A DNA stretch of 26,852 nucleotides, from the NCBI GenBank assembly GCA_964247135.1, contig CAXTTL010000038.1, forward strand, positions 1-26,852, in the 5' to 3' direction. Below the pieces are notes generated by a model that was not told where the DNA came from, did not search any database, and saw nothing but the letters and a program-made list of their open reading frames with translations. The position numbers and the translations under genes are program-made. Source of the stretch: an uncultured Deinococcales bacterium (GTDB taxonomy: Bacteria; Deinococcota; Deinococci; Deinococcales; JAAFIG01). Of this stretch, positions 1-19,440 are shown piece after piece (position 1 is the first letter of the stretch; each line of letters starts with the position of its first letter).

Positions 1-1530
1 CGGGTGAGCCACCGCCACGTTCATGACGCCCAACATTTCGCCGCCCGCCTGAATTGGGATGGTCGCCCCAGCCCAGTTTTTGGGAATCAAGGCTCGAGAG
101 GCTTCGAGGATGTTGGGGTTGTTGTAGAGGTCTGGGATGCGCTGAGAGGTTTTGGTCTGCATGGCGATGGTCGCCACGCTGTGCCCTGGACGGTCTGAGA
201 CTTTTGGCAGTTCGCTAAGCCAGCCCAGCGAACTCGAGACCATCAGTTTGTTGTTTTCGGGGTCGAACAGCACGATGCTGCCCGCGTCGGTCTCGAGGCT
301 GAGCAGCACTTCACCGAGCAGGCTGTCGGTCAGTTGTTGAATGTCATCGGTTTCGCGCAGTCGCCAAGCGATTTTTTGGATCAGTTCCAGTTCGCGCTGG
401 TACTCTTGGGCTTCGGTCACGTCTTGTTTGATCGCAATAAAGTGCAGGGTTTCGTTCTGTTCATTTTTGACCGGCGTCACGGTCATCTCTTCGATGTATT
501 GACTGGCGTCTTTGCGTTGGTTGGTCAGCCGCCCATGCCAAACCTGACCGTTCAGAATCGTGTCCCAGAGTTCCTGGTAGGCACTTTCGGATTGCTGTTT
601 TGATTTTAAAAAATTCAGATGTTGACCCTTTGTTTCCTCCAGGCTGTAACCCGTCAGGGCATTGAACGCCGAGTTCGCCCATTCGATCAGACCAGCCTTG
701 TCGGCAATCACGATGGCATTCGCGGCAGACTCGAGGGCAACCGCTTGAAGCTTTAACTGCGCCTCTGCCAGGTAGCGCTCGGTGGTGTCGTGAACAATCG
801 AGTAGACCATCGGACGACCATCCACGGTGACCGGACCGCTGTAAATTTCGACGTTGCGAATTTCAGAATTCTTAAGCCGATGCCGAGACTGAAAGAATTC
901 GCGTTGCCCTTGAAAAGCATTTTGGACATCCTCGAGCAGGAGTTCAAATGGCAAGGTGTGAATATCAGACAGGTTAAGCTGGGTAAATTCCTCGAGCGAA
1001 TAACCGTAAAATTCGCAGGCGGCAGGGTTGGCATCGAGAATGTCCATTGTTTGGGGATCAATAAAAAGCATGAGCGCATGGTTAGAGTAAAACATCGAGC
1101 GGTAACGCCATTCGCTTTCCCGCAAGGCAACTTGGGTGCTTTGAAGGGTTTTGCGCTCGTTTTGATGGGTTAAGGCTCGGGTGACGGTGGTCGAAAGTTG
1201 TGCCAGGTGTTGCGGGGTTTTGAGGATGTAATCTTCCATGCCAGATTTCATGGCGAGCACCGCGATCTCTTCGCTGCCGGTCAAGGTAAACATGATGACC
1301 GGACAATCGGGGTACTGCGCTTTAACCCGTTTTAAAACCGCAATGCCGTCGCTAAATCCAAGGTGATAATCGGTGATCACCAGATCAAAACCGCCCCGCA
1401 ACACGGCAGTCTCGAGCGCAGAGACATTGGAGGCTTCAAACATTGAGATATCTTCAAATGACTGACGCAAACTTCGTTTGATCATGTGCAAATCGTCTGG
1501 ATTGTCGTCTACGAGCAGAATATTTGGCAA
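1..1530 (-). CDS. Hybrid signalling protein, REC-PAS-PAS-GAF (partial; 3' end runs off the window)
   Basis: Hand translation from TTG 1530 is open to position 1, so it has no stop and is missing from the ORF track. N-terminal receiver: PNILLVDDNPDD...DLVITDYHLGFSDG...PVIMFT...GMEDYILK. PAS1: ESEWRYRSMF...DANPAACEFYGYS...SIVHDTTER. PAS2: ALESAANAIVIAD...WANSAFNALTGYS...WHGRLTNQRKD...IAIKQDVTE. A GAF-like segment follows (...IPIQAGGEMLGVMNVAVAHP). An alternative in-frame TTG exists at 1572. Confidence 0.88.
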   Translation of the reverse strand, partial: MPNILLVDDNPDDLHMIKRSLRQSFEDISMFEASNVSALETAVLRGGFDLVITDYHLGFSDGIAVLKRVKAQYPDCPVIMFTLTGSEEIAVLAMKSGMEDYILKTPQHLAQLSTTVTRALTHQNERKTLQSTQVALRESEWRYRSMFYSNHALMLFIDPQTMDILDANPAACEFYGYSLEEFTQLNLSDIHTLPFELLLEDVQNAFQGQREFFQSRHRLKNSEIRNVEIYSGPVTVDGRPMVYSIVHDTTERYLAEAQLKLQAVALESAANAIVIADKAGLIEWANSAFNALTGYSLEETKGQHLNFLKSKQQSESAYQELWDTILNGQVWHGRLTNQRKDASQYIEEMTVTPVKNEQNETLHFIAIKQDVTEAQEYQRELELIQKIAWRLRETDDIQQLTDSLLGEVLLSLETDAGSIVLFDPENNKLMVSSSLGWLSELPKVSDRPGHSVATIAMQTKTSQRIPDLYNNPNILEASRALIPKNWAGATIPIQAGGEMLGVMNVAVAHP

Positions 1531-1545
1531 GTTCTCACCGATTAA

Positions 1546-1572
1546 ATTATAAGGTCTTGTTGGCGGTATCAA
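1546..1572 (-). promoter_or_regulatory. Possible sigma70-type promoter for the REC-PAS-GAF gene
   Basis: Minus-strand TTGATA (1572-1567), 15 nt, TATAAT (1551-1546), 15 nt upstream of TTG 1530. The spacer is short. Confidence 0.35.
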
Positions 1573-1575
1573 TGT

Positions 1576-1989
1576 TCAATTGACGTGCGGTAGATGGTTC
1601 CATTTGAGCCAAAAATCGCTCGAGGCTTGGGTGATGGCTTCCATGTGCTCGGGCAGGCTCGGTTTTTCCAGATAACCGTTCGCGCCCAGATCGTAGGCGC
1701 GTTGCAAATCCTTGGGTTCGGTGCTCGAGCTGAAGATCACGACCGGTACGTGTTTTAATTCTGGATGTTGTCGAATCCAGGCTAAAACCTCGAAACCCGA
1801 ACGTTTTGGAAGATTTAAATCGAGCAGCACCAGTCGCGGACGGACTTTATCGGGATTCTGAAAATATTCAATGGCAGCCTCTCCGTCGGTCACGACCTCC
1901 AAAAGATGGGCAAGCTCGAGTTTAGCGAATGCCCTTTTCAAGAGAAAAAGGTCGTCTGGCGAGTCTTCGACAATCAATATTCTGCTCAT
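1576..1989 (-). CDS. Single-domain response regulator, Rcp1/phytochrome-associated-type receiver (137 aa)
   Basis: ILIVEDSPDD, LVLLDLNLPKRSGFEVL, PVVIFSSS, AYDLGANGYLEKP and C-terminal FWL, typical of Rcp1-like receivers. ATG 1989 overlaps the kinase stop (ATGA) and has a GGGAG RBS. Confidence 0.92.
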   Translation of the reverse strand: MSRILIVEDSPDDLFLLKRAFAKLELAHLLEVVTDGEAAIEYFQNPDKVRPRLVLLDLNLPKRSGFEVLAWIRQHPELKHVPVVIFSSSTEPKDLQRAYDLGANGYLEKPSLPEHMEAITQASSDFWLKWNHLPHVN

Positions 1990-4900
1990 GATGTCTCCCT
2001 GGGTTGATTCAGCGACAACCAAAAATGGCTGCCCTTCCCCGGGATCGATGTTACACCAATTTGTCCACCCATGCGTTCCACACCACGTTTAACAAAAGCC
2101 AGACCGATGCCGCTGCCCGGGTATTCGCTGATGCCGTGCAGACGCTCGAAGGGTTGAAAAATGCGTTCCAGGTTCTGGCTATCGATACCGATGCCATTGT
2201 CCTGAATATGAAGTTTGACGGTCTTGGTCTGCGGGTCAGTTTCAGCCCAGATCGTAATTTCTGGTCGAATCCCGACAGATGAGAATTTAAGACTGTTGCC
2301 CAGCAAATTAACGATGATTTGGCGCAATACCGTTTCCCTCGCCAGAACCGTAGAAAAATGCCCTTTTAAGTGAATCGTGGCATTTCGCCGTTCCCTTTCG
2401 TCTTCAAAATCATGAATCAAATCACCCAGCAGCGGCTCGAGCGCGATTGGGGTCAGTCGGATTTCGGCTTTGCTCAGGCGGCTGTACTGAAGCAAATCGG
2501 TGATTAAAATGTCCATGCGTCCCGCCGCACCGACGATACGGTTGACAAAATCTTGTCCCTCTGGTGGCGTGCTGGTTTGGTAATCTTCCAGAAAAGCCCG
2601 TCCAAAACCCTGAATGGCATTCAGTGGACTTCGCAGATCGTGCGAGACGCTCGAGGTGAACGATTCGAGTTCGAGGTTGACTTCGTTGAGGCGCTTGGTG
2701 CGGTCTTGAACGCGCTGCTCGAGTTCGGCGTTCAGTCGCTCGAGGGCTTCCTGGGCGTTTTTGCGGCTTGTCACATCGCGCATCGTTGACTGAATCTCAC
2801 GCAACTCTTTTGTTTGCGGATCATAAATTAATTTGGAGAGTGTCTCGATCCAAACATAATTGCCGTTCTGATGCCGAATCCGAATGGTCGCGCTGAAATG
2901 GGTTTTGTGTTTTTCAACGGCATCTTGACGAATAGCTGCATAAGAAGCTTGGTCGTCGGGATGGGTGACATTAAGACTCAAGACCGTGGCTATTTCATCA
3001 GGACTGTAGCCCAAAACATTGCTTGCCGACGGTGAAACGTAGCGAATTTGTCTGTCAGTGGTCGAAACAATAATGACATCCTGGGCATTTTCGGTAATGG
3101 TACGGTATAAACGTTCACTCTCCTCGAGTTTTTTGAGGGCAGTCACCCTTTCGCTGATATCACGCACCGTTGATTGAATCTCTGTTAATACTCCAGTGTC
3201 ACTGTCTCGAATTAATTTTGAAACAGATTCAACCCAAATATAATGTCCATTTTGATGACGCACTCGAAAACTCGAATTGATATACTCACTGCGATTTTCA
3301 AGTGCCTCTTGACGGATGTTAAGATAACCATTCAGGTCGTCGGGATGGATAAAATCCATCCCAAAAACCTTATCGATTTGAGATTTGTCATAACCAAAAA
3401 CTATTGTTGCCGACGGCGATATAAAATGGATTTTGCTATCGGGGCTGGTGACAATAATGACGTCCTGAGCATTTTCGGTAAGGGTTCTATACAGCCGCTC
3501 ACTTTCCTCGAGTTTTTCTTGTGCAAGGATACGTTCAGTAATATCACGTGAAGACACTTGCAATTCTTGAACCTCGCCGTGTTCATTGCGGTTTATTTTT
3601 AAGATCGATTCGATCCAAATATATTCACCGTCTTTGCGACGCAAACGGCTTTCAGAACGAAACATGTTCAGACCTTTTTCAAGGGCTTCTCGGCGACTTG
3701 CCATGTGCTTTTGAAAGTCGTCGGGATGCAGGTAATTTATGATTGGCGTCAGCATCATTTCTTCTGGCTCGTAACCAGAAAACATTTTGACTGACGGTGA
3801 GACGTACAAAATTGTTGTATCCAAATTGGTAATAAATGTGACATCGTAAGAATTTTCGGTAATGGCGCGGTACAGCCGCTCGCTTACCTCAAGTTTTTCT
3901 TGCGCCACAACTTTTTCACTGATGTCACGTAATGTAATTTGAAGTTCTCTGGCATTTCCAGCTTCATCACGAATGACTTTAACCACAGATTCAGTCCAGA
4001 CATAGCTGCCATCGTGACGACGGGTTCTGTTCTCTGAACGAAAAACGCTATCACCTTTTTCAATCGATTTACGACGATTGATTTGGTATCGCTCGAGATC
4101 ATCGGGATGAATGTAACTAAAGGCTTGAGTCTGTTCAAGTTCTTGTGGCTCATAACCAAGTATGTTTTTCGCCGCCGGCGAAACATATTGAATCATAGAA
4201 TCCAGACCCACAATCAAGATCACATCGTGAGAATTTTCGCTGATCGTGCGGTACAGACGCTCACTGCTACGAATCGCCTCCTGAATTTTGTGGCGCTCGG
4301 TAACATCGGCATAAAAAATCAGTATCCCGTCCGGGTTTGGGTAAATCCGATTCTCGAGCCATCGCGCCGAGGTCGATGAAGGGTCATCGATCACCGAACT
4401 GATGTTTTGATCCATTGCCCTTTGGCAAGCCCGCCCAAAATCGGTATCGAGCGCGTTTGGAAACTCTTGCCAAATGTTGTGACCAATGATGCTCGAGGCG
4501 TCGCGTTCCAAAAGTTTTGCACCGTTGGTATTGATAAACGCAAAACGCCAATTGCGATCAATCACAATCAAACCCTCGGTCATGGATTCGATCATGCTTT
4601 TAAAGCGTTCGCTGCCACGGCTGCCGCTGAGGTTGCGGGTCACCACCAAATACGTGACCTGCCCAACTTGCAAACTGATCTTTTCAAAGATCACCTCACC
4701 CCAATACCGGTAACCATCCGAACGGGTCAACCAACCCAAATGGGACGCCCGACCCGTTAACTGGGCTTGTCTGAACAAATCTTCGGGATTCCAAGTTTCT
4801 TGGCTGACAAAACACTGCGCCACAGGTTTGTTTAAAACCTGATGACTCGTGAATCCATACATTCGAGCCGCATCGGCATCCCAAGAACGCACCAAACCGT

Positions 4901-5213
4901 CCGCATCCAAACCAAAGATCGCGTACTCGACACTTCCACCGACCAATCTTTGAAATTCGTTCAGATGCTCGAGTTCACGAGATGCCAGTTGATCTTGGGT
5001 ACGGCGCGAACGAAGCACAAAAAAGTAGATCAAGCCAGAACTGATGAAGCCAAAAACAATGTCCAGAATAATAGCCAAGTTCTCGAGTCCACTTTGACCA
5101 AAAAGTACCAACAAAAGCTTATCCGCGAACACAGACCAGAACATCGCAAATAAACCATATGAAAGCGCGATACGCAATTCTGGTCGTAAGGGGTTCAATG
5201 GATTTCTAGACAT
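1986..5213 (-). CDS. Membrane-anchored multi-PAS sensor histidine kinase (2 TM, about 6 PAS/PAC, HisKA, HATPase_c)
   Basis: Two N-terminal hydrophobic helices and repeated SERLYR..ENxxDV...HPDD...RDI(T/S)E PAS/PAC units. H-box [11 protein letters not shown]-box [10 protein letters not shown]1 DNGIGI, F-box [10 protein letters not shown]2 GSGIGLA. Confidence 0.95.
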
Positions 5214-5607: not shown

Positions 5608-5635
5608 GTCTGGACTCACTCGAGCGAATCCAGAC
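5608..5635. other. Imperfect inverted repeat downstream of the peptide genes (possible terminator or stabilising hairpin)
   Basis: GTCTGGACTCA-CTCGAG-CGAATCCAGAC, with 9/11 arm pairing around a central CTCGAG. A second inverted repeat CAAACTCG...CGAGTTTG lies at 5661-5690. No strong U-tract. Confidence 0.35.
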
Positions 5636-5707
5636 GCGCAGTTAAAATACCTTGATTGGTCAAACTCGAGTTGATTGAAGAACGAGTTTGTTGTTGCTTG
5701 GTCGGGC

Positions 5708-5827
5708 TTATGGATGTGGAGTAACGCTTCCACCACCACTACCACCACCGATTGGATCGGCATGAGCAATTGAAAGGGTTGCGAAAAGAGCGACCAGAAC
5801 CACAAAAACTTGAGCGAATTTTCTCAT
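5708..5827 (-). CDS. Small secreted peptide precursor A, 39 aa: MRKFAQVFVVLVALFATLSIAHA-DPIGGGSGGGSVTPHP
   Basis: Hand translation; not in the ORF track. AAGGAGG RBS 6 nt before ATG 5827. Classical Sec signal peptide (basic N region, hydrophobic core, A-H-A cleavage site). Paralog of 5943-6062. Confidence 0.88.
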   Translation of the reverse strand: MRKFAQVFVVLVALFATLSIAHADPIGGGSGGGSVTPHP

Positions 5828-5942
5828 GACTATCCTCCTTGGTGCTTAACAAACAGAGAACACATTTTGGCGTTGGATAGTCACTAAGCAATCAACCATC
5901 GAAACATTAGCCTGCCAGAAATGAAGCTAGACGTATCGCTGC

Positions 5943-6062
5943 TTATGGACGTGCGCTGCCGCCACCACTACCAAGACCAGTCGAATATGGATCAGCATGG
6001 GCAATCGAAAGGGTTGCGAAAAGAGCGACCAGAACCAAAAAAACTTGAGCGAATTTTTTCAT
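5943..6062 (-). CDS. Small secreted peptide precursor B, 39 aa: MKKFAQVFLVLVALFATLSIAHA-DPYSTGLGSGGGSARP
   Basis: C-terminal part of track ORF 5943..6269. The true start ATG 6062 is supported by an AAGGAGG RBS at the same 6-nt spacing as copy A. Sec signal peptide with A-H-A site. Confidence 0.88.
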   Translation of the reverse strand: MKKFAQVFLVLVALFATLSIAHADPYSTGLGSGGGSARP

Positions 6063-6090
6063 TACCATCCTCCTTGGTGCTTGCCCGTGA

Positions 6091-6136
6091 AGGATAGATT
6101 TGTGATACTGAAAAGCGGATGAGGTGTACACTGAAC
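6091..6136. promoter_or_regulatory. Divergent control region between the peptide genes and the regulator
   Basis: Minus strand: GTTCAGTG (6136-6129) ... CCTCATCC-gct-TTTCAGTA-N9-TATCCT (6096-6091). Plus strand: candidate -10 TACACT at 6127-6132 overlaps the GTTCAGTG box. Confidence 0.5.
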
Positions 6137-6157
6137 AACTCGGCGGAGGTGAAAAAC

Positions 6158-8062
6158 GTGCATCGTATTTTGGAACATGTATTGGTGGGCAATGAAGCTG
6201 GTGCATGGGCACTGTACCAGCACATTGACCTACCTTCTGCCCTCGAGGATCGTTGGGCTGGTTGGGCATTGATCAATTTAGAGCGGCATCTCGAGGCAAA
6301 AGATTTATTGCTTCGATCTGTGCAACGTGGTTGTAAAGAGGCTCGAATAGAGTTGGCTACTGTTGAACGGTTGCTCGGAGATTTCAAGGCGGCACGTTTG
6401 ACATTGGACGGACTAGAGCACTTCACTTTTCCAGAACCGTTTGATGAAGCCTTGTATTGGCGTGAAATGGGTGTGATTTATTTATCATTAAGTCAGTCAG
6501 AATTTGCACTGACAGCATTACATACTGCATGGGATATCGTTCAGCGCGAACCTAATCTTCAATACCTCTATGCGGCAGTGGCACAAAGTCTTGGTGTTTT
6601 TTTTCTGTCGCAACGTCAATACCGTCAAGCGGCACATTACTTTTCCGTAGCACTCGAAGGGATTTTGGTGCTAAACCGAGAATTGCGAATCCGTTCGCAG
6701 CGAGTAGTGTGTCATATCTACCTTGGCGCATTTTTGGAGGCAAAGAACGATCTTGATTTTCTTGAACAACACATTGCGAATCATCCTACGTTGCGAGGGC
6801 AAATGGTCTATTACCAAGGTCTGTTGTTCCGCGCCACCGAAACCTGGGCAGAATCAGAACAACATTTTCTAAACGCCGCCAAACTCGCTCGAGCCGCAGA
6901 AGAACCCGAACTTGCGTTTTATGCCGAAATCAACGCCGCCACGGTCATGGTCATGCAGAATAAACTCGAGCAGGCAAGGATTTTGCTGGTTCGAGCCAAA
7001 AGCATCGCCCACAGCCCCAGAGATCACGCCACCTGGAGTTGGCGCAAAGGCTATCATTTGCTGCACTCCAAACCCTTGGAAGCCATGCCATTGCTCGAAT
7101 CTGCGGCGGCAGCCTTTGAAGGCATGGATTTGCCTCGAGAAACCCTGGCGTGTTGGTTAAACCATGCCGAGGCTGCCAGACGTGCTGGGTTGCTCGAGCA
7201 GGCGACGCAATCCTTGCAAACGGCGGTGGATGTGACCAGCACCGCCGATGATGCGTTTGCGGCGATAGAGCTGGCGTTGTTGCCCGATTTAAAAGCTTGG
7301 TTGAGCCAGCTCGAGCCAGTTTGGCAAAACATTTTGCTGCCCAAAAACCCTGACGCTAGCGTTCAGGTGCTCGAATTGCTGACGCTTGGCAAGTCGGAAT
7401 TGCGGGTCAACGGCAGGGCAGTCAGTTTGCGCATGGCGCGTACTGTCGAAATTCTGGCGTTTTTACTGAAAAAACCGTATCGAACCAAAGCCGAAATTCT
7501 GGTGGGTTTGTTTCCAGACAGCGATCCCGAACAAGCCATCAATTATTTTCACAAAGCCAAGCAACTCTTGACCGAAGCCATCCCCAGCCTAACGATTGCC
7601 TTTGATGTAAGGCGCAAAACCTACAGCGTGAAGGCTCAATCAGATTTGCAAACCGATTTTATACACTTTCAGTCTTTGCTCAGTGGACGTCGGGATAATA
7701 ATGTTCTAGAGGTACTGAATGCCTACACGGGGGCATTTTTGCCCCATGCGAACAGCCAGTGGGCAATTGAGGAGCGCGAAGCTTTGGCTTGGAACGTGGT
7801 TAAAATTGGCTTGGAAACACTTCAAAGATGGTACGAGGCGGGCGAGGATCAAAAGTGCTTGTCCTTGGCTGTTCGGCTGCTCGACATTGAACCGTACAAT
7901 CCAGCCCTTTCCGAGTACCTGGTCACGGTCACGTTGAGGCTCGAGGGTGAGGTGGCGGCAAAACGCGAGTTGCAACGGGCGAACCAAAAATTTTTGCTCG
8001 AGGTGGGTGAAGTGCCGCTCGAGTTGCGTCAATTGGGCAAGAGGTTGCTTCATCTGAACTGA
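6158..8062 (+). CDS. TPR-repeat transcriptional regulator with C-terminal winged-helix and BTAD (SARP-like) module, 634 aa
   Basis: Likely start GTG 6158 with GGAGGT 7 nt upstream (the track starts at 6119). About 400 aa of TPR-like helical repeats (e.g. AVAQSLGVFFLSQRQYRQAAHYFSVAL, YYQGLLFRATETWAESEQHFLNAA). Then LELLTLGKSELRVNG...EILAFLL...LFPD (SARP/OmpR-type wHTH) and YTGAFLP...W...R...LLDIEPYNP (BTAD-like). Confidence 0.85.
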   Translation: MHRILEHVLVGNEAGAWALYQHIDLPSALEDRWAGWALINLERHLEAKDLLLRSVQRGCKEARIELATVERLLGDFKAARLTLDGLEHFTFPEPFDEALYWREMGVIYLSLSQSEFALTALHTAWDIVQREPNLQYLYAAVAQSLGVFFLSQRQYRQAAHYFSVALEGILVLNRELRIRSQRVVCHIYLGAFLEAKNDLDFLEQHIANHPTLRGQMVYYQGLLFRATETWAESEQHFLNAAKLARAAEEPELAFYAEINAATVMVMQNKLEQARILLVRAKSIAHSPRDHATWSWRKGYHLLHSKPLEAMPLLESAAAAFEGMDLPRETLACWLNHAEAARRAGLLEQATQSLQTAVDVTSTADDAFAAIELALLPDLKAWLSQLEPVWQNILLPKNPDASVQVLELLTLGKSELRVNGRAVSLRMARTVEILAFLLKKPYRTKAEILVGLFPDSDPEQAINYFHKAKQLLTEAIPSLTIAFDVRRKTYSVKAQSDLQTDFIHFQSLLSGRRDNNVLEVLNAYTGAFLPHANSQWAIEEREALAWNVVKIGLETLQRWYEAGEDQKCLSLAVRLLDIEPYNPALSEYLVTVTLRLEGEVAAKRELQRANQKFLLEVGEVPLELRQLGKRLLHLN

Positions 8063-8153: not shown

Positions 8154-8783
8154 TCAATTGATCCGTTGAGATTGGTGTTCGGTTTGGGGGTTTTGACTGA
8201 GCACCGACCAATCGCGGGTTTGGGTTCCGAGCGCCCGCTCGAGGAACGCCTCGACAATTTGTGGGTCAAATTGGGTTCCGCTGTGACATTGCAATTCCTC
8301 GAGGGTCGAATGGATGCCCCAGGCTCGAGAGTAAGAACGTTGCGAGAGCAGGGTGTCGTAAACGTCGCAGATGGTCAAAATTCTGGCTTCGATTGGGATT
8401 GCCTGCCCTGCCAGGTTGGAGGGGTAGCCAGTGCCGTCAAAGCGTTCGTGGTGGTGCAAAATTGCTTTGAGCGCGTTTTCACGGATGCCTGGGATGGCTT
8501 TTGCCAGGGTGAAGCTCCAGTAAGAATGGGTTTTGACGATTTCCCATTCGTTGAAATCGAGTTTTCCTGGTTTGGTCAGGATTTTTTCGGGGATCACCAG
8601 TTTACCGATGTCATGAAGGTAGGCGGCTTGAGACAGGGCTTCCAGGGCATCGTCATTTAAGCCGAGCATTGTACCGATGGATTCGACCAGGGTTACCAAA
8701 CGCCGTGTATGTCCGACGGGTTCAATGCCCCGTTCCTCGAGTTCTAAACCGAAAGCACAAATCGTGTAAATATCGGGCAGCAT
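8154..8783 (-). CDS. Stand-alone HD-GYP domain protein (putative cyclic-di-GMP phosphodiesterase)
   Basis: GHTRR, LHDIGK, ILTKPGKL, HHERFDGTGYP, ARILTICDVYD and GTQFDP motifs; AGGAG RBS. Confidence 0.93.
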   Translation of the reverse strand: MLPDIYTICAFGLELEERGIEPVGHTRRLVTLVESIGTMLGLNDDALEALSQAAYLHDIGKLVIPEKILTKPGKLDFNEWEIVKTHSYWSFTLAKAIPGIRENALKAILHHHERFDGTGYPSNLAGQAIPIEARILTICDVYDTLLSQRSYSRAWGIHSTLEELQCHSGTQFDPQIVEAFLERALGTQTRDWSVLSQNPQTEHQSQRIN

Positions 8784-8949: not shown

Positions 8950-9561
8950 TTATCGTCCCTTGGGTTGAATAAAATTGAGTTTGGCTTCGATGCGTTCACG
9001 CAGTTGATCAAAGGGTATCGGTTTGGGCAACAACAGAACGCTTTCGGGCAAGCCTCCTTTGGCTTTGATGTCTTCGGGGGTCATGCCGCTGACGGTGACA
9101 ATATCGGTGTTCTCGAGGTCGGGCATACTGCGCAGGGTGCGAATCAGGGCAAAACCGTCCATGCCTGGAATGCTGAGGTCAAGAATCAAGAAATCTGGTT
9201 TTAAGTTTCCAATCTCCATTAACGCCCGAAAACCGTCGTTGGCGATGCTGATCTCGAGCGGCAATTTCCAACTGCTGATGACCATTTGATAGAGCTTGAC
9301 CAAATCGGGGTCGTCCTCGGCAATAAAGACCCTGAAGCTGCGCCCCTGGACTTCGGTGCGGCGTTGGCTCAAGAGGCGGTCCACGGATGCCCGCACCACG
9401 CGGCGGTGTCCTCCGACGGTGCGGTAGGCTTGCAGTGCGCCCTGTTCGACCCATTGTTGTACGGTGCGCAACGAAACGCCCAGCAAATCGGCGGCTTCCC
9501 TGGTGGTGATGACCGCGTCGCGTTCCAATGATCCGACTGTTTGATCTGCTGAATGATTCAT
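8950..9561 (-). CDS. Excisionase-family (HTH_17/MerR-like) DNA-binding domain fused to a receiver domain
   Basis: N-terminal TTREAADLLGVSLRTVQQWVEQGALQAYRTVGGHRRV. C-terminal receiver with IAEDD, LILDLSIPGMDG, VTVSG and PKP. Confidence 0.9.
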   Translation of the reverse strand: MNHSADQTVGSLERDAVITTREAADLLGVSLRTVQQWVEQGALQAYRTVGGHRRVVRASVDRLLSQRRTEVQGRSFRVFIAEDDPDLVKLYQMVISSWKLPLEISIANDGFRALMEIGNLKPDFLILDLSIPGMDGFALIRTLRSMPDLENTDIVTVSGMTPEDIKAKGGLPESVLLLPKPIPFDQLRERIEAKLNFIQPKGR

Positions 9562-10967: not shown

Positions 10968-12575
10968 TTAACGATTTTTTTTGCGCCCAAGCCTGCGCCA
11001 AACCAACCAAACCACCAGCGCACCAAAACCGAGCCACAAAATATAACGCAGCGACAGCGAAACGATCTTGGCAATAATGTCTTGAATGCTTGGTGCTGGG
11101 GCAGCAGCGCCCTGCAAGACTCGAGCGGCGGGTTTTAAAGTTCCGTCGTCGCGCAGCACGCCCAGGAACCGTTCGACCTCCCGATTGGCAGGCATCGCGC
11201 CCTTGGGAAAATCGTGCAAATTCCAGACCATAAAACCCGACTTCTTGGTGCTCATCACCTCGAGTACGGCGGCGTAATACCGCGCCTGATCGTTTTCAGA
11301 ATGCGGATCGGGCAACTTGTCGAGCTGACTGTGAAAACCGAACTCCTCGAGCAACACGGGCTTGCCAAGCTTTAAAGCCTTCTCGAGCCGAGCCGTCAGC
11401 GCCGTGGATGCCCCGTAATGATGCACGGTGGTGAAATCGAGGCTGCGGCTGAGGTCTGGGTCTGGGTCGCTCAAGCCCGCCGTGATCGGCAAACCAGTCT
11501 GCATTCTTAACCACTGCGCAAAAAATCCCAGAAACAACCGAATGTGATCCCAGCCAGCCGACTTCGCATCGCGTTCGGCTTCGTTTTTCAGGTCAAGCGC
11601 CAACACCGCAGGCTGGCGCAAGATCGGAACCAACCTCGAGATCGCGGCAAATGCCCTGGGCAAATCCTCGAGTCGATACTGGGTGTAGGTGTCCAGCAGC
11701 GTCACGATGACCTGAAGGTTGTTTTTTGCCGCCGCCTTCAAAACCTCGGGCAGATGGGTGTAAACCGCGTCGGGCGTCGGAAACGGAATAAAAATGCGGA
11801 TGGTGTTGAGTTTTAATTCTCGAGCAAGTCGTAAACTCGAGCGCATTTCGCTGGCGTCAAAATTCAACCAGAATTGCCCGAACGGGTGCGAGCGTCCAAC
11901 GTAATTGACGCCGCGCACCTGCGAGAGCAAAAACGCCAGCCCTGCAATGGGTTTGTGGGTTTCGGGCAACGTTTCGCTTTGCAAGACTCGCCAGTGATGC
12001 ACCCGCCAGTTGCCGTCGTCGAGTTTGAAGACCACATCCATCGTGCGCCGTTCGATGCGCGGGTCGAGCAGCTTCAAGCCCAGGTCGATGGCTTGGGCTG
12101 ACCAATACGTATCTGTGAAAGCGACCGTCGCGCCGTCGGGGGCATAGAACCGCAAACGCAAATGATGATCCCAGCCAGCCAGACTGGTTTTCTGAGGATT
12201 CATCGAAAGCTTCGCGTCCTCGAGCGCGGGACCTTGAAAGTACGAGCGCAAACCCGTGGTGTCGCCGCTGGCGTGGGCATAGGTCAGCTCGTCAAACGCC
12301 AGCAAGTATTCGCTGCTGATCTGGTCGCGCCTGAACGGCTCGAGCGCCCTGGGGCTGGGATCATCTGGCAGCCAAGACAGCACCCCTGGTTCCGCCTGAC
12401 GCGCCTGAATCAAATTGAGGGCGGAATCGATTCGAGTGGCGCGTTGAACCCGAGCGAAGCCGTCGCCGATGATCGGCAAGCCAACATAAAAACCCAACGC
12501 GCCCAAGATTACCAGCCAAAACCAAACCAGGGACTTCAGGGAAAAACGTGAGGGGCTGCGGTTGGACTTGCTCAA
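10968..12575 (-). CDS. Membrane-anchored clan GH-A glycoside hydrolase (GH5/GH2-like TIM barrel) with an extra N-terminal domain
   Basis: RGVNY, LNTIRIF, DLKNE (acid/base), TVHHY, PVLLEEFG (nucleophile), WNLHD and GVLRDDGTLKPA motifs. Hydrophobic helices at both termini. TTG start overlaps the upstream stop. Confidence 0.8.
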   Translation of the reverse strand: MSKSNRSPSRFSLKSLVWFWLVILGALGFYVGLPIIGDGFARVQRATRIDSALNLIQARQAEPGVLSWLPDDPSPRALEPFRRDQISSEYLLAFDELTYAHASGDTTGLRSYFQGPALEDAKLSMNPQKTSLAGWDHHLRLRFYAPDGATVAFTDTYWSAQAIDLGLKLLDPRIERRTMDVVFKLDDGNWRVHHWRVLQSETLPETHKPIAGLAFLLSQVRGVNYVGRSHPFGQFWLNFDASEMRSSLRLARELKLNTIRIFIPFPTPDAVYTHLPEVLKAAAKNNLQVIVTLLDTYTQYRLEDLPRAFAAISRLVPILRQPAVLALDLKNEAERDAKSAGWDHIRLFLGFFAQWLRMQTGLPITAGLSDPDPDLSRSLDFTTVHHYGASTALTARLEKALKLGKPVLLEEFGFHSQLDKLPDPHSENDQARYYAAVLEVMSTKKSGFMVWNLHDFPKGAMPANREVERFLGVLRDDGTLKPAARVLQGAAAPAPSIQDIIAKIVSLSLRYILWLGFGALVVWLVWRRLGRKKNR

Positions 12576-13798
12576 TTTGCTCCCAACTCGAGCCGCGCAC
12601 GGAGTCCAGCCGCGCTGACCACCACAAACTTTAGGCTCTTGGGCAGCGGTGGAAACGCATACTCGAGCCTGCCGTTGGTGCTGACCAAACCGACTGTGTA
12701 GAGCGAAGCGGTATCGCTGCGAAAATCGAGTTGAATCGGCGTGCCATCGTCGAGCAGGGCACCCTGGGCATCGATCAGCGGTCCGATAAAAATTTCTGGC
12801 TGGGGTTGGGGCGCAAAACGCAGGGGCAAACCCTTCAGGCTGATGGCTGGTACGGCATGAATGTCTGTTGTGTTGCGTTGTAGGGTGTCACTACGCGCGT
12901 TCAGGCGGTAATTGCCAGGTTCAAGTGCGCCCACCGTCAAATCGGATGTCCCGCGCACGGTGGCTCGAGTTCCAAACAAGGATAAGTTGCTGTTGAAGAG
13001 TTGAATCTGAAACTCGGTCGCACTGCCATTCAGCGCCGTGTTGCCCAGCGCGTCCGTGGCGTTGGCAAAATGAATTTTCCAGACGTCTCGAGGGTTCAGG
13101 CTGATTTTTGATTGCTCGAGTTTCAGCTCGGCGCTGGCAATCACACCAGGCATGACATCGACCTCGCCGCGTTCGCCGCGAGCCGTCAAGCTGCTGGCGC
13201 TGACCCGCAACAGACCAGTTCGGCTGCCCGTGCTGAGCCAAGCCCAAGCCAGCAAGTGCTTGACCGAGAGATTCTGCACCGAACGGCTGTCGTCAGGACG
13301 CTCGAGCCGCAACGTCACGGGCGCGAGGCTGACGTTGCCCTGCGCATCGAGCGGATGAATCACGAGTGCGGGCGGTCGCTGCGTGTCCACCCGCGCCGCC
13401 CGAGCGCCAACCTCGAGTTGAAGCGGGGTGATCGGTGAGCCAGGCTGGCGGTTTAAAGTACCTTGAAAACGATATTGACCTGCGCTGACCAGATACGGCG
13501 TCAAACCCGCGCGGCGGTACGCCAGCACCAACCTCGAGGTTGGCTTGGTCAATCCCTCATTAACGACCAGACCGGCGGGCGTGAACAGGCTGACCCGCCA
13601 GGGGACATTCAATTTCAGACCTTTGAGGTCTGTCAATCTGAATTCCAGGGTGTTGGCTTGCTGCGTGATCTCGAGTTTCGGTTGACGGGAAAGCAGCAAC
13701 TCAGTTTTGGCGCTGGGCTTCAAGAAAAGCCAGCCGACCACCAGCAGCCCCGAAACCAAAGCGGCGAACACCACCGTCCAGCTTGCGAAACGCTTCAT
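12572..13798 (-). CDS. Membrane-anchored beta-rich (Ig-like) hypothetical protein
   Basis: N-terminal TM helix. Repeated D-x-x-G-(N/A) turns (LDAQGN, TDALGN, IDAQGA) resemble bacterial Ig-like folds. 4-nt overlaps with both neighbours. Confidence 0.7.
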   Translation of the reverse strand: MKRFASWTVVFAALVSGLLVVGWLFLKPSAKTELLLSRQPKLEITQQANTLEFRLTDLKGLKLNVPWRVSLFTPAGLVVNEGLTKPTSRLVLAYRRAGLTPYLVSAGQYRFQGTLNRQPGSPITPLQLEVGARAARVDTQRPPALVIHPLDAQGNVSLAPVTLRLERPDDSRSVQNLSVKHLLAWAWLSTGSRTGLLRVSASSLTARGERGEVDVMPGVIASAELKLEQSKISLNPRDVWKIHFANATDALGNTALNGSATEFQIQLFNSNLSLFGTRATVRGTSDLTVGALEPGNYRLNARSDTLQRNTTDIHAVPAISLKGLPLRFAPQPQPEIFIGPLIDAQGALLDDGTPIQLDFRSDTASLYTVGLVSTNGRLEYAFPPLPKSLKFVVVSAAGLRARLELGAN

Positions 13799-16700
13799 GG
13801 TTCGCTCTCGAACGCCTGCGCCTGCACCGCAAAACGCAATCCTTTGGTGCGGGTAAGCGCTGTGCTGAAGGTCGGCGGCGGCTTGATCCGATTCGAGTCA
13901 AACACGACACTGGCGCTGGTGGCGCGGCGCTGCATCCGCTCGAGTCGGTAGCCGAACGGCAAACCAGATTGAACCAAGCTGGAACGCTTCTGGCGCGGCG
14001 GGATGCTCTCCAAGGCAAAATCGGTCTGTAGCCAGGCGATGCCCGCCGCGTCGTAATAACTGACCAGCACCTGCGGAACCTGGCTTTCAACCGTTCCGAC
14101 GTTCATCAGGCTCAAGTCCAAATCATTGCCGCGCTGCGCGACCCAGACCGCCAACGGTCGGTCGAGGTTGCGCTGAGTCACGACGGCTTTGGCAAAAACC
14201 TCAAAATCGCTGACCTGGGCAAAATCCACGGGCGCGTTGGTGGCATCAAAATCGATCCGAAATGCCGAACGTTCGCCGGGCAGGAGCTTGTGCATCATCT
14301 CGAGACCCGCGTTGTTGCGTTGCAATTCTTTGCCAGACTTGTCGCGCAGCAGCGCCGTGACGGTCACATCGGCGGGTCGGGCATCGATGTTCCAGAGTTC
14401 GCCGATCACGCTGTAAATCCGTTGTGTGAGAAATCTTGGCGGGTCGGTCGAAAACTTTCCGGGCAACTGCACGCGCATCAAACTCGAGACCAGACGGGTT
14501 TTTGCCAGCGTCAGTTGCGGACGGTCGAGCACATCGCCCGCCGCCGAGACATCGGTGGTCAGGCGGCGCGGCGCACGGTAATACGAGACGCTCGCCTCCT
14601 CGGCAAAACGGTCTCTCGAGCGCACGAGTTGCAGCGGTCGGGTCAGAATTTTCCAACCGTCTTTGGTCAACTCGAGTTCCTGGGTCACCGTTTCATTCAA
14701 GCTTTTCAGGCTGGTCTGCCAGCCCAGTTGGGTTCGGACCAGGGCATGTTTCGCGTCCTCGGCAATCACGCTCGGTTCGATGCGGTCGAGTTTGGCATAA
14801 CCGCTGCGCAAACCACCCTGCACCGAGAGGTCGAGCAGGTAACGGGTGAAGGTCAGTCCCTCGAGCGGTTGAAGTTCGTTGTAAGCCGCCTGAAAGCGTT
14901 TGAAATCGACGTTGTCCCAGTACGCCAACACTGCACGCTCTGGGGTCAGTACGGGGTGGGTAACCCGCCACAAGCCTGAGCCTAGCAATATGGCTGCAAC
15001 GACCAGTCCCCCGACTCGCGCACCGCGCAACCACAATGGTTTGCGGCTAAAATCGAGCACGACCTCGAGCGGTCTGTTCCAGCCCCGCCAGGGTTGCCAT
15101 GCTCCAGCCGCCTGAGCCTCGAGCGCATCCTCACGCAACAGACGCAGCCACTTGCGCCCAAGTTTGGAAAGTTGATAACGCTTGATTCTCGAGGCTCGAA
15201 CCGGCACGGCAAGCGAGAAGAACGCCATCAGCATGGCGAGCGGCGGCAAGGTGCCCCACATCAGGCGTTGATAGAGCGGCATGGTCTTGCGCGGCAATCT
15301 TTCGGGCAGTGGCGGGATGTCCTCGCGCTCCCAGACGACGATGCCGTTCTCGAGGCGACTCAGACGGTGCCAGCCCGAGAAGAACAACAGCGGATCGTAA
15401 AACGCATCGTTGGAAAAAATAAATTTTAAATTGTACTTTTCGGGCACGGTGACAAATTGATGCAGGCTGCCGATGCCCGCCAGACTGGTGTACTTTGCGC
15501 CGTCCAATCGTTCGACGGGTGTGGTGGTCAATTCGATCAAACGCCGCGCCGAATGGTAATTGCCGTCCGGCGTGAGTGCCCTGGTATTTGCCGAGAGCCA
15601 CGCCATCTGATCGCCAAACCCCAGGGTCAAATAGCGGTAGCGCCAGTGCTCGTCTTTCTCGAGAAAATTGACGATGGGTTCGACCGCAATCGGTTCGGGT
15701 TGAAATTTGCGGTAGCGCGTCAGGCTGGAAACGGCTATGGCAATCACGATCAGGCTTAAACACAAACCGCCCAGCAGCAACAGGCGAATTCGCCGTCCCA
15801 GGTTTGCCTCGAGGTATTCTCGAGCGCGTCCGTAGAGCAAACTTTCAAACGCCATGCCGACAAAAGGGATCATCAGCATGGTCGCCCAGAAGGTGAATCG
15901 ATCCAGGGTGAGAATATCGAAGCTGCCGCGCAGCAACAATTTGGGAATCGGGGTGGTGCCGCCCGTGCCGAGCACAAACAAGATCAGCAAACTGAGCGCC
16001 ACGGGAAAGCGCCAAGTGCCCAAACCCTTGTAGATGGCAAAAGGCAAAAATGCAAAAGTTGAAAGCCAGGGGATTACAAAGAACATCAACCCTGCGGCGG
16101 TGTTGACCAGAAAATTATCGCGGCTGGCGTGGGGAATGCTGACCTGGGTGATTGGGTCGCTGCGGTTCCAAATCCAGAATGGAAACACCACCAGCAACAG
16201 CGCCACGCCGGTCAAGCCACCGAACAAGACCGAGCGGTAGACTCGAGGTAAAATGCGGTAGAAGCGGCGGCACACCTTTGACCTGAAATCTTCACCGGTC
16301 GGCTCGAGCGGACGCGGGCAGCGAAAAGCCTCCAAGACGCTGACCAACAAAACTGGAATCGCAAAGAACAACGTGCCGAACAGCGTGGTGACATGGTGCG
16401 CGGCGGTCGTGGCGGCGACGAAACAAACCGCCTTGAGCAATTCGGCTTTGCGCCCACCGCGCACGTAACGCACCGCGAACACCAGACCGTTCAGCAAAAA
16501 CGACAACGATAGGGTTGTGGGCAACTGACCGAAAACGTGTACCGTCTCGACAATCGAACTCGAGATGCCCAAAAAGAGCGCCGCCATGCCGGCGGCTCGG
16601 GGCGAGGTCAGCAAGCTCGAGAATCGGTACATGCCGACAGTCAAGTTTAAGAGCGCAAACAGTTGCACCAGGGCGAACGCGGGTTTTAAACCGACCAAAA

Positions 16701-16971
16701 ACGACAGCACCGCAATCAGTTGGTGCGACAGGGGTGGGTAGCTGACCGTCAAAAAACCGGTGTACCAACGCGATTCCCAGGGATCGAACCAACTGCTGGC
16801 GTAATGCGCCCCAAAAAAAATGTGAATCAGTGCGTCATAAGTCCGAACAAAACTTTGGGAAAACAGCAGCGCCCCGTGAAAAACGAGCACCAAGCCAAGG
16901 GCTGCTGCCAACCACAGCAGCCCTTGGCGATGCTCGAAGGGACCAAATTTTGTTGAGGGTGAGTCTGACAT
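13795..16971 (-). CDS. Large polytopic membrane protein, GT-C-like glycosyltransferase N-terminal half plus extracytoplasmic C-terminal domains (1058 aa)
   Basis: More than ten hydrophobic segments. First loop TYDALIH...WFDPWESRWYTGFLTVSYPPL resembles GT-C first loops ('6-pyruvoyl-tetrahydropterin synthase-related' membrane family). Soluble C-terminal ~390 aa after the last TM. Confidence 0.7.
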   Translation of the reverse strand: MSDSPSTKFGPFEHRQGLLWLAAALGLVLVFHGALLFSQSFVRTYDALIHIFFGAHYASSWFDPWESRWYTGFLTVSYPPLSHQLIAVLSFLVGLKPAFALVQLFALLNLTVGMYRFSSLLTSPRAAGMAALFLGISSSIVETVHVFGQLPTTLSLSFLLNGLVFAVRYVRGGRKAELLKAVCFVAATTAAHHVTTLFGTLFFAIPVLLVSVLEAFRCPRPLEPTGEDFRSKVCRRFYRILPRVYRSVLFGGLTGVALLLVVFPFWIWNRSDPITQVSIPHASRDNFLVNTAAGLMFFVIPWLSTFAFLPFAIYKGLGTWRFPVALSLLILFVLGTGGTTPIPKLLLRGSFDILTLDRFTFWATMLMIPFVGMAFESLLYGRAREYLEANLGRRIRLLLLGGLCLSLIVIAIAVSSLTRYRKFQPEPIAVEPIVNFLEKDEHWRYRYLTLGFGDQMAWLSANTRALTPDGNYHSARRLIELTTTPVERLDGAKYTSLAGIGSLHQFVTVPEKYNLKFIFSNDAFYDPLLFFSGWHRLSRLENGIVVWEREDIPPLPERLPRKTMPLYQRLMWGTLPPLAMLMAFFSLAVPVRASRIKRYQLSKLGRKWLRLLREDALEAQAAGAWQPWRGWNRPLEVVLDFSRKPLWLRGARVGGLVVAAILLGSGLWRVTHPVLTPERAVLAYWDNVDFKRFQAAYNELQPLEGLTFTRYLLDLSVQGGLRSGYAKLDRIEPSVIAEDAKHALVRTQLGWQTSLKSLNETVTQELELTKDGWKILTRPLQLVRSRDRFAEEASVSYYRAPRRLTTDVSAAGDVLDRPQLTLAKTRLVSSLMRVQLPGKFSTDPPRFLTQRIYSVIGELWNIDARPADVTVTALLRDKSGKELQRNNAGLEMMHKLLPGERSAFRIDFDATNAPVDFAQVSDFEVFAKAVVTQRNLDRPLAVWVAQRGNDLDLSLMNVGTVESQVPQVLVSYYDAAGIAWLQTDFALESIPPRQKRSSLVQSGLPFGYRLERMQRRATSASVVFDSNRIKPPPTFSTALTRTKGLRFAVQAQAFESEP

Positions 16972-17027
16972 GAACGCGATTTTTAGTTTAAGCGCTTTAA
17001 CGCCTGATGACAGGTCACCGCAAGCTT

Positions 17028-19283: not shown

Positions 19284-19358
19284 GAATAGGACTCCTTTGG
19301 GTGTATGAGATGGCGGGTTATGGTGGCGAAGGCTCGAGAAATGAAAATCTCTAAAAAA

Positions 19359-19402
19359 AGAATAAACTGATAAATTTGAAACTTGTGTGATTTTTGCACA
19401 TT
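19359..19402 (-). promoter_or_regulatory. Promoter of the lipoprotein operon with TGTGC-N5-TCACA box
   Basis: Minus strand AATGTGCAAAAATCACACAAGTTTCAAATTTATCAGTTTATTCT; -10 TATTCT at 19364-19359. 32/52 ungapped identity (19351-19402 versus 10743-10794). Confidence 0.6.
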
Positions 19403-19440
19403 GCAAATTGAATCGCGGTGGCATGATGGATTTAGAAATC

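Follow-up and report, generated by a model that had tools for sequence, protein, structure and literature searches.

Predicted exported peptides paired with a TPR-SARP regulator in Deinococcales: a candidate peptide-receptor signalling cassette

The peptide-regulator cassette

The window analysed here, meaning the whole stretch of 26,852 nucleotides (nt) of contig CAXTTL010000038.1 (assembly GCA_964247135.1, an uncultured Deinococcales bacterium), holds two tandem genes for 39-residue propeptides that are transcribed away from the gene of a 634-residue regulator, in which an N-terminal sensor built from tetratricopeptide repeats (TPR) is joined to a C-terminal output module of the SARP type. 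We refer to the small genes and the regulator together as the cassette; its features are listed below by their coordinates in the window (homologous loci carry numbers with L, contigs numbers with C).

5708..5827, minus strand: distal propeptide gene, 39 amino acids (aa), 120 nt with its stop codon, present in the list of open reading frames (ORFs), with orthologous peptides in L011 and L018; product MRKFAQVFVVLVALFATLSIAHADPIGGGSGGGSVTPHP, that is, MRKF..SIAHA followed by the mature tail DPIGGGSGGGSVTPHP
5834..5840, minus strand: Shine-Dalgarno (SD) sequence AAGGAGG of the distal peptide gene, 6 nt ahead of its ATG, read from the sequence
5943..6062, minus strand: proximal propeptide gene, 39 aa, starting at an internal ATG of the ORF 5943-6269 and recovered by genome search; product MKKFAQVFLVLVALFATLSIAHADPYSTGLGSGGGSARP, that is, MKKF..SIAHA followed by the mature tail DPYSTGLGSGGGSARP
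6069..6075, minus strand: SD sequence AAGGAGG of the proximal peptide gene, 6 nt ahead of its ATG, with predicted pairing to CUAUCCUUC in a hairpin of the 5' untranslated region
5753..5847 and 5988-6082: copies 1 and 2 of a tandem duplication that takes in the signal-peptide codons, the ribosome-binding site and 20 nt upstream
5608..5635, minus strand: terminator-like hairpin of 12 base pairs, 73 nt past the stop codon of the distal peptide gene, a consensus match only
6063..6157: divergent control region between the proximal peptide gene and the regulator, 95 nt, conserved with L011 and L018
6108..6134, plus strand: three weak boxes with a (C/A)TGA core, at 6108, 6119 and 6131 (spacing 11-12 nt), read from the sequence as candidate SARP repeats
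6145..6149, plus strand: ribosome-binding site GGAGG of the regulator, 8 nt ahead of GTG 6158 and kept in L011
6158..8062, plus strand: regulator gene, 634 aa from GTG 6158, within the ORF 6119-8062, which has an in-frame ATG upstream at 6119
6158..7342, plus strand: sensor domain (residues 1-395), with about 20 helices arranged as a nine-repeat-like TPR solenoid of the Rap/NprR type
7364..8059, plus strand: output domain, residues 403-634, a SARP module made of an OmpR-type winged helix and a BTAD domain
8154..8783, minus strand: HD-GYP-type gene with an HD_5 domain (E 8.9e-33), convergent with the regulator and a candidate part of its output

Both propeptides are basic at the N-terminus; a hydrophobic core of about 15 residues, the motif A-H-A and a 16-residue Gly-rich tail follow in that order. 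The coordinates, the AAGGAGG sites, the signal peptides ending in A-H-A and the 95-nt gap had been described in an earlier reading of this DNA (hereafter the original prediction), and sequence and ORF list agree with it on each. The tandem copies are 93% identical across 95 nt, and the codons of the mature peptides are 73% identical. No terminator was predicted between the two peptide genes, and the hairpin at 5608-5635 is the one match in the sequence, against 1.1 expected in shuffles.

The regulator most likely starts at GTG 6158 and not at the upstream ATG, because GGAGG precedes it at suitable distance and because its orthologs in L011 and L018 (79% and 83% identical to the window regulator, respectively) begin VHPIL and VHGIL, with the same Val-His. 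It is this start that gives the protein its 634 residues and the intergenic region its length.

Conservation of the pairing

Peptide genes beside related regulators were counted by a strict rule, which asks for an ORF of 30-55 aa with an SD-like motif, one or more Lys or Arg among its first ten residues and a hydrophobic window of 10 residues that averages 2.0 or higher on the Kyte-Doolittle scale, situated on the strand opposite the regulator and 40-300 nt from its start. A further 70 loci were fetched, and nine duplicates, four weak partial paralogs and two full-length loci lacking upstream DNA were removed before counting; the loci counted are non-redundant and full-length, with at least 320 nt of upstream DNA (n = 58).

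The strict rule found a peptide gene at 40 of these 58 homologous Deinococcales loci. Applied elsewhere in the loci, it gave 23 matches in 294,316 nt (0.078 per kb, both strands), and applied to the whole genome of the window it gave 262 matches in 5.09 Mb (0.051 per kb); about 0.01 matches are expected by chance per searched interval and about 0.6 among the 58 loci, and chance is thereby excluded. Six of the 18 loci that fail the rule have a candidate on a relaxed look: at 469 nt in L024, at about 330 nt in L049, with a weaker hydrophobic core in L061, downstream on the same strand in L039, and as longer ORFs in L035 and L040. Homologous regulators thus do have small genes for predicted secreted peptides beside them, by the strict rule and in these six further cases, and the absence that the original prediction had named as its own undoing was not what we found. 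Among loci with only shorter regulator matches, none of 13 has a peptide by the strict rule.

Tandem second copies of the peptide gene also occur in L034 and L038. In a quick maximum-likelihood tree of the regulators, peptide types track the clades. The window shares the type DPxxxGSGGGSxxPxP with L011 and L018, and other clades are marked by [DN]PxSHLGGxSGxGIxSR, DPxxGAGTGxGNGITxxP, EGxxxGGGGW, a group ending in CxxC, NGLPSxxGGK, xIGPxGG and HGGGAxGGGGLPGG. Since close kin share these labels, the pattern indicates co-inheritance of the pair and falls short of proof of co-evolution.

In another family of the order (L075-L083), regulators are shorter, at about 570 aa, and have no peptide gene by the strict rule. 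Those of L075-L081 match profile positions 3-557, and a conserved 33-aa ORF, MKNTGKRIFA...SAG....SQR, lies about 520 nt upstream of them on the other strand.

Peptide genes

Signal peptides were judged heuristically, by charge, hydrophobic core and the -3/-1 rule, and compared in an alignment (A6) of 46 related peptides, made up of the window's proximal peptide and 45 others. The following features lay outside the selection rule and are conserved all the same. Ala stands at position -1 in 45 of the 46 and at -3 in 33, the rest having Val, Gly, Ser or Thr except for one Pro. On the other side of the predicted cleavage site, +1 is Asp in 24 peptides (Asn in 7, Glu in 4) and +2 is Pro in 31; one Gly column is kept in 45/46, and two Cys occur in the tail of 10/46. 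We saw no lipobox or twin-arginine motif in the window peptides. The conserved Ala at -1 and -3 and the conserved residues at +1 and +2 fit cleavage by signal peptidase I and selection on the new N-terminus.

Between orthologs, the proportion of nonsynonymous differences (pN) in the signal-peptide codons is 0.08, compared to a synonymous proportion (pS) of 0.46-0.68, and in the mature part pN is 0.06-0.14 against a pS of 0.16-0.48; between the window's own two copies, the mature part has a pN of 0.41 and a pS of 0.37. These values come from small counts in an ungapped alignment. With pN far under pS between orthologs, they show that the peptide ORF is translated and under purifying selection.

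The original prediction held that such peptides fall below gene-calling thresholds. They are indeed missing from the gene tables that PLSDB gives for two Deinococcus plasmid loci, tables that are incomplete, but the exact window sequences are already present in a public protein collection, where a related peptide (WP_224576266.1) is also listed as a hypothetical protein of Deinococcus betulae, so that this claim stands in part only.

In L011, the second of two peptide copies, the distal one, carries a frameshift inside the signal peptide (L011:2500-2800). The mature part of this distal copy, DPYSTGLGSGGASARP, matches the window's proximal peptide, and the intact proximal copy of L011 matches the window's distal one; from this cross-matching, the two peptide types stand in swapped order in L011 and the window genome.

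A regulator with a TPR sensor and a SARP output

Pfam recognised TPR_12 alone in the window regulator (E 1.5e-9), its BTAD match being sub-threshold (E 0.098), and NCBIfam returned nothing specific. We therefore give the assignment of the C-terminal half to the SARP module as one drawn from the family profile and the fold. An alignment of 60 family members (A2) was used with an AlphaFold2 model of the window protein, which at full length reached a pLDDT of 92.9 and a pTM of 0.65; it places about 20 helices at residues 3-360, short capping helices up to 393, a strand-and-helix unit at 405-499 and a helical domain at 500-632. Modelled alone, the C-terminal 237 residues gave a pLDDT of 92.9 and a pTM of 0.84, and the top six Foldseek matches of this model in the PDB were AfsR (8k60, 8hvr; TM 0.70-0.72) and EmbR (2ff4, 2fez; TM 0.64-0.65), at E values of 7e-10 to 2.5e-8, the next match being at 1.6e-3. 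The C-terminal sequence profile likewise matches AfsR (8.8e-6 over 230 columns) and EmbR (9.7e-4). Pfam detects BTAD at E <=0.01 in 48 of the 60 family members, the window's own segment having no match. The architecture set out in the original prediction, an N-terminal TPR region and a C-terminal SARP-type winged helix with BTAD, is thus borne out by model, profile and Foldseek, and it is only Pfam on the window protein by itself that leaves the BTAD unconfirmed.

No HTH family in Pfam matched the N-terminus of the regulator, which is where RRNPP systems have their effector domains. The highest 19-aa Kyte-Doolittle mean of the protein is 1.05, and, having no hydrophobic segment, the regulator is cytoplasmic. 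Of 59 relatives, 53 have a higher identity in the SARP than in the TPR part (on average 37% against 29%), which is to say that, by sequence comparison, the sensor half is evolving faster than the output half.

Foldseek with the TPR sensor returned generic TPR proteins only. Structural comparison gave the highest Z scores with RapF-PhrF (29.0), phi105 Rap (28.3), RapI (27.2) and NprR (27.2 in the apo form, 25.1 with NprX), and slightly lower ones with MalT domain III (27.1), APPBP2 (26), LGN (about 25), pLS20 Rap (24.7) and AimR (22-23). In a search of 48,161 representative chains that was independent of Foldseek, two Rap proteins lead (27.9 and 27.2), followed by APPBP2 (25.6), LGN (25.1), pLS20 Rap (24.2) and NprR-NprX (24.0). 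Rap and NprR exceed unrelated TPR scaffolds by a margin of 2-5 Z units only, and identity within the structural alignments is 8-13%. A profile of the whole family matches NprR (E 1.7e-9 to 3e-9) and RapJ (1.4e-6), with designed and eukaryotic TPR proteins scoring better. By its modelled fold, then, the sensor half belongs with the nine-repeat receptors of the Rap/NprR type, as the likening of this domain to RRNPP receptors had anticipated; common descent or a peptide ligand lies beyond what the fold proves. When a complex of the TPR domain and the 39-aa prepeptide was predicted (from alignments A5 and A6, respectively), the scores were 0.02 and 0.01 against a mark of 0.32, a result that counts neither way. 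Nor does a look at public sequencing runs, among which one DNA run with a small share (0.07) and no RNA run were listed.

The divergent control region

SARPs bind tandem direct repeats, phased at about 11 nt, over the -35 region. Across 39 intergenic regions, direct 7-mers (at most one mismatch) at 11-nt spacing numbered 67, compared to 5.8 ± 3.6 in shuffled sequence (z 17), in 15 of 39 loci, in a test that used mononucleotide shuffles and included close orthologs, which inflate the counts; further spacing peaks lie at 12, 21-23 and 32-33 nt. The clearest single example is L028, where five phased boxes resembling CTGAACAAG end 4 nt before TATACT, itself 8 nt from the regulator start, and similar phased arrays with other words occur in L032, L021-L023, L054, L055 and L041. 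Because an 11-nt-phased layout is the known layout of SARP sites, the regulator is predicted to sit on its own divergent promoter.

In the proximal peptide gene, the mRNA leader (6063-6100, minus strand) can form a hairpin in which CUAUCCUUC pairs with GGAGGAUGG (-13.7 kcal/mol, z -2.5), and the corresponding hairpin of L011 carries a compensatory UUCUC/GAGAA change. Peptide leaders often form such a hairpin: across loci, in folds of the peptide leaders only, the SD sequence is at least 80% paired in 20/39 and z is below -2 in 9/39.

Paralogous pairs and taxonomic spread

The window genome (5.09 Mb in 386 contigs, 84% complete, 52.7% G+C) encodes three more full-length regulator paralogs, at about 29% identity, on contigs C311, C35 and C165. 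Those on C311 and C35 have a divergent ORF of 39-40 aa 99-120 nt upstream, with a signal-peptide-like N-terminus and the tail HGGGASGGGGLPGG; the C165 paralog reaches the contig end. C294 holds a truncated fifth homolog with MKNLRALIVIVSLLILGGVVVAGPGSMGGGTVPTTHTP 105 nt upstream on the opposite strand, a peptide that was found at E 5.8e-6 by a peptide profile built without C294. The genome thus has at least four pairs, on C38 (with two peptides), C311, C35 and C294.

Relatives that public records name come from Deinococcales metagenome-assembled genomes and from seven Deinococcus plasmids, in keeping with the Deinococcota origin that the original prediction had judged probable from the letters. 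A match at E <=1e-10 is present in 102 of 201 sampled genomes of the order, including 18/18 in the window's own family and 39/51 in the genus that contains Deinococcus betulae. A full HMMER scan of 1.84 billion proteins yielded 703 family representatives (50% clusters) at E <=1e-30, and the best 150 of these 703 are all colinear full-length proteins or fragments; a word-based homolog search found 8 proteins only, and we take the family size from the HMMER scan. Database names for these proteins include 'BTAD domain-containing putative transcriptional regulator', 'TPR repeat protein' and 'hypothetical protein'. Protein clusters of similar appearance, with BTAD and TPR, are indicated in Chloroflexota, Actinomycetota and Pseudomonadota as well, as leads only. 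Among cultured strains with the module, D. taeanensis TS293 (plasmid p_TS293_2) and D. betulae have a peptide by the strict rule, and D. gobiensis I-0 (plasmid P2) has a candidate peptide on the relaxed look only.

A second architecture was seen in the same genome at L086 (C1:16744-18673) and L087 (C9:9509-11312). Here, signal-peptide ORFs of 51 and 43 aa, ending ..ADDGAKPAGGGG and ..ADDPKTGAGGG, lie on the same strand as, and 50-60 nt upstream of, TPR proteins of 570 and 539 aa. Alignment of the C1 protein to the regulator family takes in the TPR and winged-helix parts and breaks off early in the BTAD, where the protein ends (hhalign probability 95.5%, E 1.4e-8). At C109:9121-15694 (L089), two small signal-peptide ORFs in tandem (14256-14381 and 14013-14198, minus strand), whose tails are rich in Gly and Cys, adjoin an Opp-like ABC importer (SBP_bac_5 and two permeases) and an HD_5 gene. 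A 375-aa ORF at the contig end upstream of these peptides was considered as a member of the regulator family and rejected, the hhalign probability of 5.8% being not significant.

Genes around the regulators

To survey the neighbours with Pfam, we took the longest ORF in each flank, which gave 57 ORFs upstream, where the peptides lie, and 58 downstream, the scan reaching about 1.2-1.5 kb from the regulator match in most loci and 3 kb in L011-L013. No modifying enzyme, exporter or immunity gene recurred among these 57 and 58 neighbours. An HD_5 gene lies directly downstream of 9/58 related regulators, the window's own being additional; eight of the nine are on the same strand and operon-close (L004, L026, L040, L056, L059, L064, L065 and L066) and the ninth (L018) is convergent. 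Within one clade, the arrangement looks like an operon. PAS-GGDEF genes adjoin the regulators of L021-L023, and PAS histidine kinases adjoin those of the window, L011, L018, L030, L031 and L037. The genome as a whole has about 20 HD_5 genes in its 5.09 Mb, and given shared ancestry the HD_5, GGDEF and PAS neighbours amount to perhaps two or three independent associations. As far as gene order can tell, the recurrence of HD-GYP and GGDEF genes in this position may connect the family with behaviour controlled by cyclic di-GMP (c-di-GMP), which serves as a lead to the regulon only.

Binding proteins of the Opp/Dpp type are represented in the genome by 26 matches; with these present, peptide import should be possible, as in most bacteria.

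A proposed mechanism and its alternatives

We consider it probable that the cassette is a peptide-receptor signalling system resembling those of the RRNPP type and equipped with a SARP output. In its favour are the conserved pairing, the conserved residues around the predicted cleavage site, the several pairs per genome, the peptide types that follow regulator clades, the faster divergence of the sensor half, the tandem copies that keep the signal peptide and differ in the mature part, the lack of a recurrent modifying enzyme or exporter among the 57 and 58 neighbours scanned, the Opp/Dpp matches and the phased repeats. In such a system, transcription of the two small genes would run away from the regulator and probably yield a single transcript that stops at the hairpin at 5608-5635. 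Sec would export the prepeptides, and signal peptidase I would cleave them behind A-H-A, leaving a 16-residue Gly-rich peptide that starts with Asp-Pro and may be trimmed further. The peptide would build up outside the cytoplasm, be taken back in by an oligopeptide permease and bind the concave face of the Rap/NprR-like TPR solenoid. Binding would switch the C-terminal SARP module on the 11-nt-phased repeats and lead to recruitment of RNA polymerase, with autoinduction of the peptide gene, the regulator gene or both, and control of further targets, for which c-di-GMP turnover genes such as the neighbouring HD-GYP gene are candidates. We infer export and cleavage from sequence rules, and re-import, binding, the sign of regulation and the regulon are proposed in the same spirit.

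Several observations weigh against this proposal. The 18 loci without a peptide by the strict rule include whole clades, and 12/58 full-length loci have none on the relaxed look either; these are mostly high-G+C Deinococcus clades, together with L013, the ortholog of the C165 paralog of the window genome. Peptide-less loci that make up whole clades imply that the regulator is able to occur with no peptide gene next to it. The exported parts, Gly-rich and of low complexity at 10-30 residues, also differ from the short charged or hydrophobic pheromones of RRNPP systems, and, as Deinococcales have an outer membrane, an intercellular signal would have to cross it twice. The window's own boxes (6108, 6119 and 6131) are weak, and the inflation of the repeat counts described above belongs here as well. 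Finally, SARPs are known to activate neighbouring genes, and the peptide gene could be a mere target.

This last point leads to the most serious competing explanation, unlikely in our estimation yet far from negligible, in which the TPR domain senses a small molecule or a protein and the SARP module activates a peptide gene that does not feed back on the regulator; the peptide would then have an extracellular or periplasmic job, for example in metal binding, envelope function or antagonism. A SARP fold and phased repeats beside a peptide promoter suit a plain activator-target pair, for which AfsR activating afsS offers a parallel, and the 12 regulators with no detectable peptide and the near-equal fold likeness of MalT domain III point the same way. 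A mere target would, however, have no need of clade-specific peptide diversification and a faster-evolving sensor; several paralogous pairs per genome resemble families of pheromones and receptors, the best fold matches are peptide-bound forms of Rap, and no immunity, modification or export gene recurs among the scanned neighbours. We regard as very unlikely a secretion-coupled or tethered arrangement, in which an uncleaved or membrane-anchored prepeptide binds the TPR domain in the cytoplasm and export or occupancy is what is sensed. It would do away with outer-membrane crossing and re-import, peptides in extended form are ligands of TPR domains, conservation between the tandem copies is highest in the signal peptide, and type III secretion has a loose parallel in TPR chaperones that become co-activators after their secreted partner leaves. 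The Ala residues at -3/-1 and the conserved Asp-Pro after the site nevertheless favour cleavage and selection on a new N-terminus, and the conserved Gly motif sits in the exported part.

Slightly less likely again is that the small genes encode precursors of ribosomally synthesized and post-translationally modified peptides (RiPPs) or bacteriocins, Gly/Ser/Cys-rich and in some cases with a C-terminal CxxC, next to their pathway regulator. Such a composition recalls some modified peptides, and the two tail Cys in 10/46 peptides and the common control of biosynthetic clusters by SARPs agree with it. The N-terminus is a Sec-type signal and not a leader, though, and the 57 + 58 neighbours scanned show no recurrent cyclodehydratase, radical SAM enzyme, ABC exporter or immunity gene. 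As for the small ORFs being chance reading frames in a promoter region, which their shortness and Gly richness might have led one to suspect, the comparative data refute it and we give it practically no credence: the count of 40/58 against about 0.6 expected, the low pN relative to pS between orthologs, the strong and correctly spaced SD sequences and the conserved AxA-DP-G motif all argue for real genes.

Relation to known systems

The cassette shares with RRNPP(A) systems, of which Rap-Phr and NprR-NprX are the nearest, a cytoplasmic solenoid of about nine TPRs, with RapJ, RapF, phage Rap and NprR as the best structural matches, a small adjacent gene for a propeptide with predicted Sec-type export, and more than one paralogous pair of receptor and peptide in a genome. 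Additional propeptide genes in tandem are a further shared trait, having been reported for some Rap systems (mBio 2022). The cassette differs from RRNPP(A) in having a C-terminal SARP output in place of an N-terminal XRE-type HTH or the N-terminal bundle of Rap, in belonging to Deinococcales, with their outer membrane, and not to Bacillota, in the conserved Asp-Pro at the N-terminus of the exported piece as opposed to a C-terminal penta- to heptapeptide, and in the divergent arrangement of its genes.

On the output side, AfsR of Streptomyces and EmbR of Mycobacterium have the same winged-helix and BTAD module with TPR in the same protein, and AfsR-afsS has tandem repeats phased at about 11 nt near the -10 of a small neighbouring gene. 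Compared to these activators, the domain order is reversed here, with TPR first and SARP last, and there is no NB-ARC/ATPase domain; the SARP module occupies residues 403-634 of 634, not the N-terminus as in the SARP family. AfsS is cytoplasmic, whereas the small neighbour in our cassette is predicted to be Sec-exported, and the setting is not an antibiotic cluster. MalT, with a SUPR/TPR-like solenoid in domain III and a small inducer, combines an ATPase core, a LuxR-type output and a sugar ligand, and has no paired propeptide gene. Effector position and taxon keep the cassette out of RRNPP, and module position keeps it out of SARP, so we file it under neither; it probably works like the former, and it carries the output of the latter.

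TPR-receptor peptide signalling has been treated as a trait of Bacillota, their phages and plasmids. In the full-text literature, with supplements outside the scope, we found no description of the gene pair, nor of peptide signalling in Deinococcota. The RRNPP_detector survey covered only Firmicutes and viruses (PMC10075063). Two candidates from the literature proved to be something else: the Deinococcus SARP protein of PMC3564903 is a REC-SARP response regulator, and the 'SARP' of PMC1274311 is an unrelated eukaryotic name.

A bolder version of our interpretation, which we find somewhat doubtful, is that this is true pheromone-receptor quorum sensing, with a sensor homologous to that of Rap and NprR, rewired to SARP and often coupled to c-di-GMP turnover genes, and hence the first RRNPP-type family outside Bacillota. 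If true, peptide-receptor communication would extend to another phylum, to cells with an outer membrane and to a different transcription module, SARP, and a Rap-like receptor with a propeptide outside Bacillota would surprise specialists. According to a structural phylogeny of RRNPPA (Nat Struct Mol Biol 2025), an outgroup drawn from distant structural homologs would help to root the family and to establish how many repeats its ancestor had; the TPR-SARP family is a candidate for such an outgroup and, if it is one, bears on the choice between a nine- and a five-TPR ancestor. The cultured Deinococcus carriers make the idea directly testable, all the more as the ligands are predicted to be short peptides without modification, which are readily synthesised.

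Other features of the window

Further signalling genes surround the cassette. ORF 1986-5213 (minus strand) encodes a histidine kinase of 1075 aa that carries four or more PAS domains, and receiver proteins are encoded at 1-1572 (minus strand, with PAS), 1576-2022 (minus strand) and 8950-9561 (minus strand, HTH_17/MerR-like). At 10968-19442 (minus strand), Pfam gave no match at E 1e-5 for three large ORFs in a row (535, 408 and 1058 aa); they adjoin an 804-aa DUF4114/DUF4842 protein, and sugar-nucleotide and glycosyltransferase genes flank the group.

The palindrome CTCGAG occurs 132 times in the window (e.g. at 5619-5624, 5665-5670 and 6242-6247), compared to 5.6 ± 2.5 in dinucleotide shuffles, and is the commonest hexamer of the genome, with 33,925 copies, or 6.7 per kb, about 25x the expectation from base composition. 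This abundance is reminiscent of the cyanobacterial HIP1 palindrome.

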